From contig CBDBLV010000004.1 of assembly GCA_965207225.1 (NCBI GenBank), forward strand, positions 576,001 through 640,000: 64,000 nucleotides of DNA, read 5' to 3'. The position numbers and the translations under genes are program-made. This document shows positions 21,373 through 59,463 of this stretch, piece by piece (the first letter of the stretch is position 1; every line of letters starts with the position of its first letter). The notes beneath the pieces were generated by a model, which was given only the letters and a program-made list of their open reading frames with translations, was not told where the DNA came from and did no database searches. The stretch is from Dehalococcoidia bacterium (lineage in GTDB: Bacteria; Chloroflexota; Dehalococcoidia; Plut-88900).

Positions 21373-21451
21373 AACAGCAACCCTAAGATGCCGGTTTCCT
21401 GAGGAACGTTCGGAAAGGAGGGCAAGAAGCAGACTCAAAGAAAAAAGGCAC

Positions 21452-21568
21452 CCGGCGGCGACCTATTTTCCGCGGAGAGTTGCCCCTCTAGTATCGTCGG
21501 CGCAGAGGTGTTTCACTTCCGTGTTCGGAATGAGAACGGGTGGGCCCACCTCGCTATAGCCACCGCAG
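21452..21568 (-). rRNA. rrf: 5S rRNA, unlinked from 23S
   Basis: Reverse complement GGTGGCTATAGCG..CACCCGTTCTCATTCCGAACACGGAAGTGAA..GCGCCGACGATACT..GGAAAATAGGTCGCCGCC; flanking AAAGGCAC/GTGCCTTT stem and U-tract. Confidence 0.95.
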
Positions 21569-21587: not shown

Positions 21588-21616
21588 ATTCTACTATGAC
21601 ACCGATGTCGGCGCAA
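21588..21616 (-). promoter_or_regulatory. sigma70-like promoter for the 5S gene
   Basis: TTGCGC-17-TAGAAT just upstream of the 5S precursor stem. Confidence 0.65.
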
Positions 21617-21787
21617 GGGCTTGTGTTCGTTCCGGAGGTTGGCGACATGCTAAGTCTCTATTCAGTTGTGGGGGGTGGGGTTTTGGTTGAACGTTGATTG
21701 AACTCGTAGCTGGTTTGATTGAATGACGCCTAAAGGGATTGCTGAGAATTTCGCGTGGTGCGGGGAGGGGATGCCTCCAGCCCCGCG

Positions 21788-21905
21788 GGGGAACCCTCAC
21801 CCCCTTGGTCCCCCTCTCCCTTGGGGCCTTAAAGGGAGAGGGGGAGAGAAGAACAGAGGAAGAGGTTGGCGCTGCAGCGCCAACCTCTTCCTCTAGTTCA
21901 GTACT
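21788..21905 (-). repeat. Variable-palindrome repeat, copy B
   Basis: Perfect 40-bp palindrome 21855-21894 with the same flanks as copy A. Confidence 0.8.
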
Positions 21906-22036
21906 GGTAAGAGGGGAGGGTATGACGCATAAGGAAGCGCAGGGCGTGGATTCCCGCTTGGGGGCCGGAATAGCGGGATTGGAAGTTATTCAGTTTGGGG
22001 GCACGTTGTCGGTTCTGTCTGTTGGGGTTTAGGGTC

Positions 22037-22495
22037 GGCGATGGAAGACGCACCTGGAGCGGTGACCCCGCAGGGTGTCGCTGGCCCGGCCGTACGGGGT
22101 CGGTCAGTCCGGTCCCGCCTCACTGGACGGTCGGACTGCGGCCGGCAGAAGCCCCTTTCTTTAGTGTCGGCTTGGAGGCGTCCCAGGGCTGGGGACGTGT
22201 CTCCGCCGCTGCCTAGATCTGGCTGTGTAGGCGGACATACGGGTCCGTCATCCGTCACAGGTTCCAATAAACGGGTTAGCTGCGCTGTAAGTGAATACAG
22301 GAAGGGGAATGTCCAGAGTCATGTCCCCACGCAGGAGTACGGGGTTTCCAGTTCGCCGCCTGTATCCAGGAACCCGGAGTGGCGGTCTGCCCAGTTTCAT
22401 TTGCTGAAGCGGACGGAGAGCCGAGCGGTCCTCGGCTACGGGCGACCCCGTTCCGCTCCTTAGGTCGGGTTGCTCCAGGGCGTCTTTCCATCGCC
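22037..22495. ncRNA. Putative structured non-coding domain, cassette 2 (unknown family)
   Basis: Terminal IR GGCGATGGAAGACGCACCTGGAGC / GCTCCAGGGCGTCTTTCCATCGCC; ends and one internal hairpin shared with 58885-59332. Confidence 0.6.
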
Positions 22496-22832
22496 TGGGG
22501 GGACAGGGGAATGTGATGGGTCGGGACGATGTGGAGGAGATGGCGCCTTTCGCTTGTGCCGCAGGCCTCTCTTTTATCCGTTCTTAATACCCTTCGACAA
22601 GCTCAGGGCGAACGGAACGGAGAAGGCCGTTGGGATGGGCCAGGACGTTGAGTCCTCCGGGCGCCGGGATAGGAGATGGCGTCTGTCGCTTGTGCCGCAA
22701 CCTGTCCGCCTCACAAGGGAGGGGAGAGGCATTGGGATGGGCTTGGGCGTTGAGTCCTCTCGGGCGCCGGGGTTGTTCCCCTTGGGTTTTCGGGTTCCTC
22801 CTTAAGGTGGTGTCGGGTCTAGACTTAGAACA

Positions 22833-22861
22833 AATATAAAGCTCAAGTGTTTGCATGTCAA
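22833..22861 (-). promoter_or_regulatory. sigma70-like promoter of cassette 2
   Basis: TTGACA-17-TATATT. Confidence 0.7.
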
Positions 22862-22904
22862 GGGGTATGTTACGTTTATGGAGGGAATATCCCCCGGTCC
22901 CCCA

Positions 22905-23044
22905 GGAAACCCTCACCCCCTTGATCCCCCTCTCCCCCTCGAGGGACTCGGGGCAGGCTCTTAGGGCCTTTAAGGGAGAGGGGGAAAGAAGAACAGAGAC
23001 AGACGTGGGTGCGTTGCACCCACGTCTGTCTTTAGTTCAGTACT
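22905..23044 (-). repeat. Variable-palindrome repeat, copy C (with nested short insert)
   Basis: 16-bp perfect stem AGACAGACGTGGGTGC-GTT-GCACCCACGTCTGTCT, same flanks. Confidence 0.8.
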
Positions 23045-23064
23045 GAGGGGACAGAACCCCGCCC

Positions 23065-23357
23065 CAGATTCCTCGCGGGGCATCGGAATGACAGTGAGGG
23101 GTGTGATTGGCTATGGAGGGATGCGACGGGTCGGCAGGATGTGGGCCTCGCCCCGCTCATACTTCGAGGGCCTCAGCACGAGCGGCCCCACCCCAGGGCA
23201 ATCCTTTGTGATTGCCGCTACGCGGGAGGGGATACCCCCAGCTCCACGGGATGGATTCCCGATCGGAGTCGGGAATGACGGATGTGAGGAGGGATGCCAG
23301 GGGTGAGGGACGTGAGTGGGCAAGTCCTAGATTCCTCGCGGGGCATCGGAATGACAG
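23065..23357 (-). repeat. Cluster of REP-like repeats upstream of cassette 2
   Basis: AGATTCCTCGCGGGGCATCGGAATGACAG twice; GGATTCCCGA..TCGGGAATGAC; CCGCTC..GAGCGG. Confidence 0.75.
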
Positions 23358-58884: not shown

Positions 58885-59332
58885 GGCGATGGAAGACGCT
58901 GTCCGGACTTTGACCCTGTTCCTATCCAGGCAGCTTGTAGGTGTCCCGGGGTCGGGGGACACCTGCCGCCGGCAATTGCTATGCCTCCACGTACTAAGTA
59001 CGGGCTTGCACGCCACACAGGCCGCGAGCAATCGCCAAGCGTCCTCGTACCAAGCAAGTACGGGCCGCAGGCCACTTACGCCGGTGAGTTCAACCGGCCA
59101 GGCCCAGCTCCCTGAGAGAGCGGCAGCATTGGGCCGCCGTCGAAACGGCTTTGTCTTGCCCTGCCGCCAGAGCGCATCTAGGCGCTCGGCCCGCCTCAAA
59201 CGACGTCGAAAGGACTCGCAGGGGGCCGGCCTCGACCCTCACGTATAAGAGGGGAGGCCAAGGCCTCTACCCTCATGCACTGAGGGGGAGGCCGGACGGG
59301 AACGGTGTAGACCAGAGCGTCTATCCATCGCC
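58885..59332. ncRNA. Putative structured non-coding domain, cassette 3 (unknown family)
   Basis: Terminal IR GGCGATGGAAGACGCT / AGCGTCTATCCATCGCC enclosing about nine hairpins; homologous ends to cassette 2. Confidence 0.6.
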
Positions 59333-59435: not shown

Positions 59436-59463
59436 AGTTTAGCACGATTGTAATAGGGGTCAA
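59436..59463 (-). promoter_or_regulatory. sigma70-like promoter of cassette 3
   Basis: TTGACC-16-TAAACT with TG extension; AAACTG-AGGA-CAGTTT IR overlaps the -10. Confidence 0.65.

Follow-up and report, generated by a model that had tools for sequence, protein, structure and literature searches.

The window analysed here is a 64,000-nt stretch of the genome of a Dehalococcoidia bacterium (GenBank assembly GCA_965207225.1, contig CBDBLV010000004.1, positions 576,001 to 640,000). Its 459-nt segment 22037-22495 had been flagged, by a model that saw only the letters and their open reading frames, as a closed non-coding domain with a homologue elsewhere in the window (hereafter the original prediction). 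We interpret this segment, with a probability of roughly 0.6, as part of a promoter-seeking, once-mobile element that has not been described before and that codes for a modular non-coding RNA (ncRNA). The segment itself is probably the exchangeable middle domain, closed by a helix, in one copy of a protein-less repeat that is specific to a single genus. The prediction of an element that is multicopy, does not code for protein, is dense in hairpins and has a modular interior between conserved ends was thus borne out. Its extent had to be revised: the closed 459-nt domain is only the middle cassette, the unit as a whole measuring ~0.85-1.0 kb. Conservation far past both arms, a consensus promoter on the opposite strand and a 5S rRNA gene 470 nt away on that strand are features that the prediction did not contain.

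A promoter on the opposite strand

A sigma-70-type promoter matching the consensus at 9 or more of 12 positions lies 50-79 nt upstream of a Shine-Dalgarno (SD)-like box in 120 of the 137 distinct units collected from nine genomes of the genus, and in 41 of the 41 units of the genome that contains the window (the source genome). In 119 of the 120 promoter-bearing units the -35 box starts 50-69 nt upstream of AAGGAGG. The reverse complements of the units gave 5 matches in 137, and shuffled sequences 5.0. Since these promoters, like the layout of the unit as a whole, read along the window minus strand, the transcribed strand is almost certainly opposite to the one assumed in the original prediction. 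On the promoter-read strand, the unselected outer nine pairs of the helix that closes the domain contain 19 G-U cells and 4 A-C cells.

Closing helix and fold

The long-range inverted repeat proposed to close the flagged segment was recovered in a repeat search (22037-22060 against 22472-22495; 24-nt arms, 411 nt apart). Without gaps the complementarity of the arms is merely 75%, because one of them has one extra base; once this base is allowed for, the arms are complementary. The extra unpaired base, which had also been noticed, proved to be widespread: a 1-nt bulge is present in 49 of the 119 distinct domains compared across the nine genomes and a 2-nt bulge in one, and all 50 bulges are located in the arm that the prediction called right (the 5' arm in RNA sense), with none in the other. 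The closing helix has a median of 15 uninterrupted pairs, and up to 24 when the bulge is counted. As had been claimed, the second window copy (58885-59332) is closed by the same 15-nt motif, and the outer flank TGTCTGTTGGG.TTT.GGGTC is common to both copies; it is the complement of the tail of the unit. In the 4.03-Mb source genome the motif GGCGATGGAAGACGC has 17 matches with at most one mismatch, 12 of them exact, as compared with 0 forward and 2 reverse matches for a reversed-pattern control. A genome scan for end-motif pairs, which had been suggested, retrieved 14 pairs enclosing 198-553 nt in the same genome.

The minus strand of 22037-22495 folds with a minimum free energy of -209.5 kcal/mol (z = -4.89 against dinucleotide shuffles), and z is -4.49 for the plus strand; no shuffle out of 100 reached this level on either strand. 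The consensus fold computed for 22 short-type homologues (-143.8 kcal/mol) has 98.9% of its cells paired, versus 41-50% when the partners are slid. Six domains orthologous between the source genome and G008, the closest genome, differ by 161 substitutions, which break 38 predicted pairs as against an expected 54.5 +/- 4.9; a value this low was reached in 0 of 500 simulations. Across the 119 domains the outer 11 pairs of the closing helix are nearly invariant, and both partners of pairs 12-14 change from class to class (G-C 38, A-U 57, U-A 7; U-A 35, C-G 58; C-G 43, G-C 49). Related copies are not independent, so that none of these counts is a probability. The helices would appear to be kept better than chance, on evidence that is mixed.

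Family size, distribution and exchange of interiors

The source genome contains ~40 units, with 38 leader motifs (27 nt) and 44 tail motifs, and most of these units close with the variant helix GGCGATGGAAGGTCC...GGACCTTCCATCGCC. Motifs of the GGCGATGGAAGACGC type have 14-59 matches in each of the congeners (8 of 8) and 0-4 in each of 32 genomes of other genera, save two with 9 and 11. Searches seeded with a whole unit (BLAST) resulted in matches in all five congeners sampled and in not one of the 145 genomes that represented 109 further genera of the class. The exact 27-nt leader was found in 87 stretches among 185,579 species genomes; the matches listed (80 of the 87) belong to eight records, all titled 'MAG: Dehalococcoidia bacterium' (MAG, metagenome-assembled genome).

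The flagged domain has ~50 homologues that are 78-92% identical to it, distributed over seven of the eight congeners, and a sister copy (C5:911761-912219) is 97% identical. Within one common frame, the 119 distinct domains were sorted into 22 interior classes, the flagged domain belonging to class B. When the window unit is compared with its sister, the domain and proximal leader are 95.5% identical over 532 nt and the promoter and leader 84.9%; the tails do not align. At the nusA site of genome G005, both the promoter type and the interior differ from those of G000 and G007 between the same flanks (the interior of G008 is unread). From the mismatch in identity between domain and leader and from the swap in G005, it follows that interiors have been exchanged, with break points near the conserved helix.

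Some copies are altered or resemble other sequences. At C1:66973-70074 a unit is split between leader and closed domain by ~2.7 kb, which starts with an open reading frame whose N-terminus, read by eye, we take to resemble the helix-turn-helix of IS21-family IstA. At C3:216515 the source genome has a 1,130-bp deletion relative to G008 (C1:1236707-1239917), through which a class B unit has lost its 3' part and tail; the host promoter is gone too, as is the 5' part of a histidine-rich cation-efflux-like gene. Two 77%-alike repeats, C4:456579-456914 and C5:1617348-1617590, share a IYVAGIDLAGES...VVVDAIG... stretch that resembles a fragment of a terminase-nuclease-like protein and shows similarity to interiors found in other classes of unit; the long open reading frames of these repeats gave no Pfam or PHROG matches. 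A terminase origin was considered for class B as well and rejected, there being no sign of it; the likeness is confined to other interior classes.

Insertion sites

Non-autonomous mobility, one of the possibilities raised in the original prediction, is borne out by orthologous sites that are filled in some species and empty in others, and the empty sites that were to be looked for do exist. Seven sites (eight loci) that are filled in relatives correspond to short gaps of 20-336 nt in the source genome. The cleanest filled/empty series is the nusA locus (C5:1034300-1037500 in the source genome), with tRNA-Val(gac) upstream. This site is filled in G000, G005, G007 and G008 and empty in G001, G002, G004 and G006. 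In its empty form tRNA-Val is followed by ~75 nt and then by the nusA promoter, TTGCAA-18-TATAAT; in the filled form the unit lies between the two. The promoter is unchanged in the filled genomes G000 and G005 and in the four empty ones, and likewise in G003, which is unfilled. The last bases of the element are within 3 nt of the -35 box, on its upstream side, and the same junction geometry was found at three other filled/empty pairs. GCC or GGCC is present at both junctions of the nusA insertion, in genomes that are 83-89% alike there and whose left flank is unaligned. The exact ends of the element could not be placed, because the intergenic flanks of filled and empty genomes are too diverged. 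Beside the unit at this locus, in the first ~940 nt of the C5 segment (minus orientation), is a ~0.94-kb sequence that is repeated more than 15 times in the source genome at 68-92% identity and is found in congeners as well; it is probably an insertion sequence or a member of some other repeat family.

The register with the promoter is visible across the family. Among 86 distinct tails, a strict promoter match starts at +40 to +44 in 19, and every other 5-nt bin holds 0-3. The ~40-nt right-end spacer belongs to the element. A general site upstream of promoters was considered for the right-end motif and rejected, since only the 4 tail-following matches out of 40 in the genome precede promoters. 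The downstream genes point the same way as the unit; judged by eye from their N-termini, they presumably include nusA, rpoB, uvrA and mnmA, and a tRNA gene is also among them.

The 5S rRNA gene, a single copy in the source genome, has its own promoter, which was missed by a simple promoter scan because its -35 box matches at 3 of 6 positions. A unit is located upstream of this gene, in the same orientation, in five of the nine genomes of the genus. In the source genome the full unit lies ~330 nt upstream of a solo tail that abuts the 5S promoter. The position of this solo tail is occupied by the tail of a full unit in G006 and G007, and in G001 it is where the closing helix of a full unit ends (the tail motif was not scored there). 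The 5S site of the source genome therefore looks like the result of two successive arrivals at the same promoter edge, with the solo tail as the remnant of an insertion. The rRNA genes of this genome are unlinked, with the 5S gene in the window, the single full-length 23S gene at C5:49658-52796 and the 3' end of the 16S gene on C4 near 512.3 kb. That the flagged segment might be a 23S or 16S fragment beside the lone 5S gene was rejected, given the full-length 23S gene elsewhere and the lack of any match to large or small subunit (LSU/SSU) rRNA in the region.

Organization of the unit in the window

In 14 aligned copies, conservation reaches ~300-400 nt past the arms towards the promoter and ~90 nt past them towards the tail. 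The features of the window are given below, in the order of transcription on the minus strand.

22880-23045, minus strand: upstream copy of a terminator module (~140 nt); hairpin 23031-22997 followed by a CUGUUCUUCU run, a terminator-like match
22833-22861, minus strand: promoter P1, sigma-70-type, TTGACA-17-TATATT; 11 of 12 consensus positions (mean of 0.4 matches in shuffles)
22797-22803, minus strand: SD-like box AAGGAGG, near the inferred 5' end of the RNA and followed by no start codon
22496-22796, minus strand: C-rich leader of repeated modules, from alignments and repeat families D3 and D6
22472-22495, minus strand: 5' strand of the closing helix in RNA sense, GGCGAUGGA-A-AGACGCCCUGGAGC, with a 1-nt bulge
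22037-22495, minus strand: flagged variable domain, class B, long type, 459 nt, from its fold and homologues
22037-22060, minus strand: 3' strand of the closing helix, GCUCCAGGUGCGUCUUCCAUCGCC
21987-22036, minus strand: C/A-rich, G-poor tail ending in ...CCCCCAAACTGAATA, one of the 44 tail motifs of the source genome
21764-21906, minus strand: second, downstream terminator module, with a perfect 20-bp palindrome (21895-21854) and UUCUUCUCUC after it; repeats I1, D1, D2 and D7
21617-21673, minus strand: solo tail (21673-21659) with a right-end-like spacer, abutting the 5S promoter
21588-21616, minus strand: 5S rRNA promoter TTGCGC-17-TAGAAT, read from the sequence
21450-21567, minus strand: 5S rRNA gene, neighbour and insertion target outside the element (Rfam RF00001, 87.8 bits)
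59436-59463, minus strand: promoter of the second window copy, TTGACC-16-TAAACT with TG before it
58885-59332, minus strand: closed domain of the second window copy, 448 nt, of a different interior class (cluster of two with C5:1654862)

Transcription from P1 would start near 22826. The AAGGAGG box is a perfect complement of the 16S rRNA 3' end, ...CACCTCCTT, and belongs to the 27-nt leader motif. The leader contains an internal duplication of ~136 nt (22535-22563 with 22671-22699; 22619-22657 with 22721-22759) and includes the pre-helix motif CCCCTGTCCCCCCA. The tail may be a Rho loading site or a 3'-end region. The segments 22880-23045 and 21764-21906 are linked by the direct repeats D1, D2 and D7 at 79-85% identity; the upstream module probably insulates the unit from upstream transcription, and the downstream one is likely to be the end of the transcript of the window copy. 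The ~140-nt terminator module, a perfect 16-20-bp palindrome with a C/U-rich run, constitutes a separate repeat family that is found on both sides of the unit and next to many units, and often travels with the element. Further short intergenic repeats (GATTCCTCGCGGGGCATCGGAATGAC-type hairpins at 23063-23094, 23326-23357, 21940-21976 and 23245-23281) are packed into this 2-kb intergenic region and also crowd around other units.

Neither a transposase nor a reverse transcriptase is encoded nearby, in agreement with the original prediction; the neighbouring genes in the window encode an aconitase, a class-III aminotransferase, a methyltransferase and a phosphotriesterase-family protein. The reverse transcriptase domain RVT_1 was found at four loci of the genome (C2:158087, C5:1548409, C5:1553608-1554405 and C5:1671488-1672288), none of them by the window unit.

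Proposed mode of action

We propose that the minus-strand sigma-70 promoter drives an ncRNA of ~0.85-1.0 kb, which would begin with an SD-like box ~25-33 nt from its 5' end and continue through the C-rich leader, the closing helix, the variable domain and the C/A-rich tail. In this RNA a closing helix of 15-24 bp with a conserved outer half would surround a densely folded domain of 200-550 nt. The SD-like box could bind 30S subunits and protect the 5' end, RNase III could cut the closing helix and free the folded domain as a stable product, and the C-rich tail could load Rho, so that transcription would stop before disturbing the host promoter. Genes for RNase III (rnc-like), RNase J and Rho are present in the host, and its anti-SD is canonical. 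As DNA, the element would land with its tail end 0-3 nt upstream of a resident -35 box, in the same direction as the host gene, and the conserved closing helix would double as the break point for interior swaps between copies.

Coding capacity and known RNA families

The view that no credible protein is encoded is supported by the reading frames, by Pfam and by comparison of homologues. In the window copy a plus-strand frame that begins at an ATG in the left arm is open for 140 codons (22041-22463), and it was considered as a candidate gene; the 97%-identical sister copy stops after 10 codons, and this candidate was rejected. The scan of the frames against Pfam gave no match at E<=0.01. In 28 homologues no frame is consistently open, and gap runs of 1, 2 and 4 nt are common among them. 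The longest open frames have medians of 115 codons (forward) and 112 (reverse), much as in shuffled sequences (111); the T content of the strand is only 14.7%. Frames that follow the SD-like box close early, at a median of 0.45 of the unit length, with 4 of 85 staying open. A protein-coding gene on the plus strand is therefore an explanation that we consider practically dismissed.

When the whole window was searched with Rfam 15 at the gathering score, only the 5S rRNA was retrieved. The cmscan search envisaged in the original prediction assigned neither window domain to a family: at E<=10 nothing was found inside 22037-22495 or 58885-59332, and ten further units of other classes gave no matches at E<=0.1. 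The models tested include OLE, GOLLD, ROOL, HEARO, raiA, group I/II introns, RNase P, tmRNA, SRP, 6S and self-cleaving ribozymes. Phage-derived DNA was rejected as a source of class B, for which there was no blastn match among 50,697 phage records. A tblastx comparison of class B interiors with the source genome gave short spurious matches, apart from the truncated copy at C3:216515.

Alternative interpretations

Several observations weigh against a once-mobile, promoter-seeking element with an RNA of its own. In the substitution test the complementary strand is also low (44 broken pairs versus 55.4 +/- 4.6 expected, 6 of 500 simulations), and folding energy, as a guide to the strand, points the other way in 38 of 41 domains of the source genome, in which the complement is the more stable. 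Choosing the strand by folding energy was given up as uninformative, alignments favouring the RNA strand by 9-14 kcal/mol and single sequences the G/U-rich complement in those 38 of 41. Of the 116 pairs within class B, 85 are invariant and a single one changes on both sides, with a borderline within-class shuffle control (5 of 500); the covariation claimed in the original prediction is therefore thin within the class, and it is clear only for the closing helix compared across classes. The inner hairpin on which that claim had rested, GTCCC...GGGAC, is indeed present in both window copies, with a next pair that is C-G in one and U-A in the other. DNA inverted repeats, too, would be expected to change in concert in both arms. 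Between orthologues the closed domain (90.5% identity) and the leader (90.1%) are close to third codon positions (88.0%), and sequence constraint on them is therefore slight. RNase III cleavage, the stabilizing role of the SD box and Rho termination are all predictions from the sequence and from the presence of the genes.

A metatranscriptome assembly contains a 430-nt contig over 22049-22485 (32 mismatches, 9 gaps, depth 8.7), which is weak evidence of RNA: it is strandless, DNA carry-over is possible, and the ends of the contig fall at a repeat where assemblies break anyway. In the same RNA run, 22711-22881 was without cover and the tail had little; nothing can be concluded from such gaps. 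In a DNA run, joints of the kind 21898->23045 could stem from recombination of one terminator module with the other, or from other loci.

Mobility and targeting meet objections of the same kind. Of 11 loci in G008, the 7 with unit-spanning or unit-flanking matches are at unit sites of the source genome, and no clean filled-versus-empty pair between the two genomes was found among the 11; since units of both genomes occupy the same sites, movement is not recent. At the junctions compared, neither clear terminal inverted repeats (a doubtful likeness of ~12 nt at most) nor a clear target duplication was found. In the source genome, which is 92.3% complete, searches for the IS110 DEDD domain (PF01548), Y1 TnpA and TnpB (PF07282) gave no matches, other transposase families being outside these searches. 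A convergent gene has its 3' end ahead of the second window copy, and 11 of 30 tails in the source genome are followed by other repeats.

[quoted passage not shown] Such a repeat would be multicopy, protein-less, genus-restricted and variable in occupancy, as found here; near-neutral drift, the equally good folding of both strands and covariation between the arms are likewise what it would lead one to expect, and MITEs with sigma-70 promoters are described in the review PMC10969869. We nevertheless regard this explanation as unlikely. The promoter, at a fixed distance in 120 of 137 units, is the most regular feature of the family and is packaged in a gene-like manner with leader, tail and terminator modules; the inverted repeat is internal, not terminal; helix-breaking substitutions number 38 and not the 54.5 expected; and the excess of G-U (19) over A-C (4) is found on the transcribed strand. 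A role for the RNA in mobility itself is rather doubtful: together with a host or trans-encoded enzyme it would direct insertion to the upstream edge of -35 boxes and mediate cassette exchange at the helix. Similarly doubtful is the notion, under the same RNA-dependent homing to promoters, that the interiors are swappable cargo, partly captured from other genes, as the terminase-like fragment of another class might be.

Alternatively, P1 might read into the host gene, with conditional termination in the tail, and the unit would be a cis-acting leader or second promoter, a plug-in regulator of ~40 housekeeping genes. Units are co-directional with the next gene and in fixed register with its promoter; the best conserved parts are the tails (94.7% identity between orthologues) and the right end with the host promoter (96.0%); nusA, rpoB, uvrA, mnmA, a tRNA and the 5S rRNA are downstream; and rho is present. 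However, the host promoters already exist where no unit is inserted and stay intact where one is, the window tail is separated from the 5S gene by ~420 nt and a perfect 20-bp hairpin terminator, the second window copy faces a convergent gene, and 11 of 30 tails lead into other repeats instead of a gene, so that this arrangement seems improbable. It is more improbable still that the domain is a folded single-stranded DNA recombination site, similar to attC or to an IS200/IS605 end, at whose bulged helix a recombinase swaps the cassette. All bulges, which 50 of 119 domains possess, are in one and the same arm, interiors have been exchanged with break points near the helix, and the genome has five tyrosine recombinase genes (counted without a specific search for IntI). 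Yet these genes are unlinked to the element, no recombinase gene is located beside any copy examined, and no Y1 transposase was found in the source genome; the arms, compared by eye with the attC core GTTRRRY, are without it and are 200-550 nt apart, far beyond attC; and the swaps can be accounted for just as well by homologous recombination across the 11 invariant pairs.

Relation to known elements

The nearest known systems are promoter-bearing MITEs (Correia elements), HEARO-like mobile RNAs and large orphan ncRNAs; the window element fails the defining features of each that were tested. In the review PMC10969869, the Correia (NEMIS) elements of Neisseria are described as small, protein-less, multicopy sequences that are mostly located just upstream of genes and carry sigma-70-like promoters. 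They are 204 bp long, with inverted repeats at their very ends, which when transcribed form a helix that is cut by RNase III, and their occupancy varies among strains (PMC10969869). The window element is likewise protein-less, multicopy, promoter-bearing and variable in occupancy. It differs in its size of 0.6-1.0 kb, in an inverted repeat that is internal and surrounds a variable domain of 200-550 nt, in the lack of terminal repeats or clear target duplication at the sites compared, in a promoter that would drive a long RNA of its own, and in insertion in register with the host -35 box. As in MITEs generally, the element is small and multicopy, is without an internal transposase gene and is polymorphic in presence or absence; unlike them, it has no terminal inverted repeats that could be recognized. 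No autonomous relative with the same ends was seen, the transposase families searched for being IS110, IS200/IS605 TnpA and TnpB; the one long copy, on C1, holds an unrelated IS21-like insertion.

Systems that depend on an adjacent protein gene fit no better. For a retron, an adjacent reverse transcriptase would be expected, whereas the neighbours are metabolic genes and RVT_1 is found elsewhere; for the bridge RNA of IS110 or the omega-RNA of IS200/IS605, an adjacent DEDD protein or TnpB/IscB would be, whereas there are 0 PF01548 and 0 PF07282 matches. In attC, R and L core sites (GTTRRRY) delimit a hairpin of 57-141 bp, and the sites form an array next to intI. The arms of the window element, of the GGCGATGGAAGACGC type, have no such core, are 200-550 nt apart and belong to copies that are dispersed, not arrayed. 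HEARO, the omega-RNA of IscB/TnpB, is a large, structured, multicopy mobile RNA that often has no adjacent protein gene; the window element differs from it in having no Rfam match, no TnpB-type zinc-ribbon domain in the genome and an exchangeable interior that lacks conservation. OLE, GOLLD, ROOL and raiA are, like the window element, non-coding, several hundred nucleotides long and rich in helices, with a function that the sequence does not betray; they have conserved cores and few copies per genome. By contrast, in the window element it is the frame that is conserved, the core falls into 22 classes, there are ~40 copies per genome, and no model matches.

An rRNA operon combines a strong promoter, a leader and an RNase III processing helix around a stable RNA. 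The unit resembles this arrangement in its strong promoter, its leader and its 15-24-bp helix of flanking sequences around a folded RNA, in a host with an RNase III gene; it differs in having no LSU/SSU match, in being dispersed and variable, and in that its cleavage is a prediction. STAB-SD sequences are 5' stabilizers of Bacillus mRNAs, to which the perfect SD near the 5' end without a start codon, in a host that encodes RNase J, bears a resemblance in sequence alone. Putative mobile promoters (PMC3575422) are near-identical promoter-bearing sequences upstream of unrelated genes within a genome; compared with these, the window element leaves the host promoter in place and adds a complete ncRNA unit upstream of it. 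In full-text searches we found no description of such an element in Dehalococcoidia or Chloroflexi, nor of promoter-directed insertion of this kind in bacteria.

Implications

If the proposed reading is true, one uncultured genus of Dehalococcoidia devotes ~40-60 strong promoters per 3-4-Mb genome to a family of large ncRNAs. The target of insertion would be very unusual, namely the upstream edge of the -35 box of other genes, among them nusA and 5S rRNA, and units are also located upstream of rpoB; this would be a possible example of promoter-directed insertion in bacteria. On the same reading, the large bacterial RNAs of unknown function, a short list so far, would gain a new family that can be tested. 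The combination of promoter, 5' SD box, closing helix and C-rich tail resembles a cassette by which stable structured RNAs might naturally be expressed. Many of the long 'empty' intergenic regions in these MAGs are accounted for by the element, which puts their correct assembly and annotation at risk.

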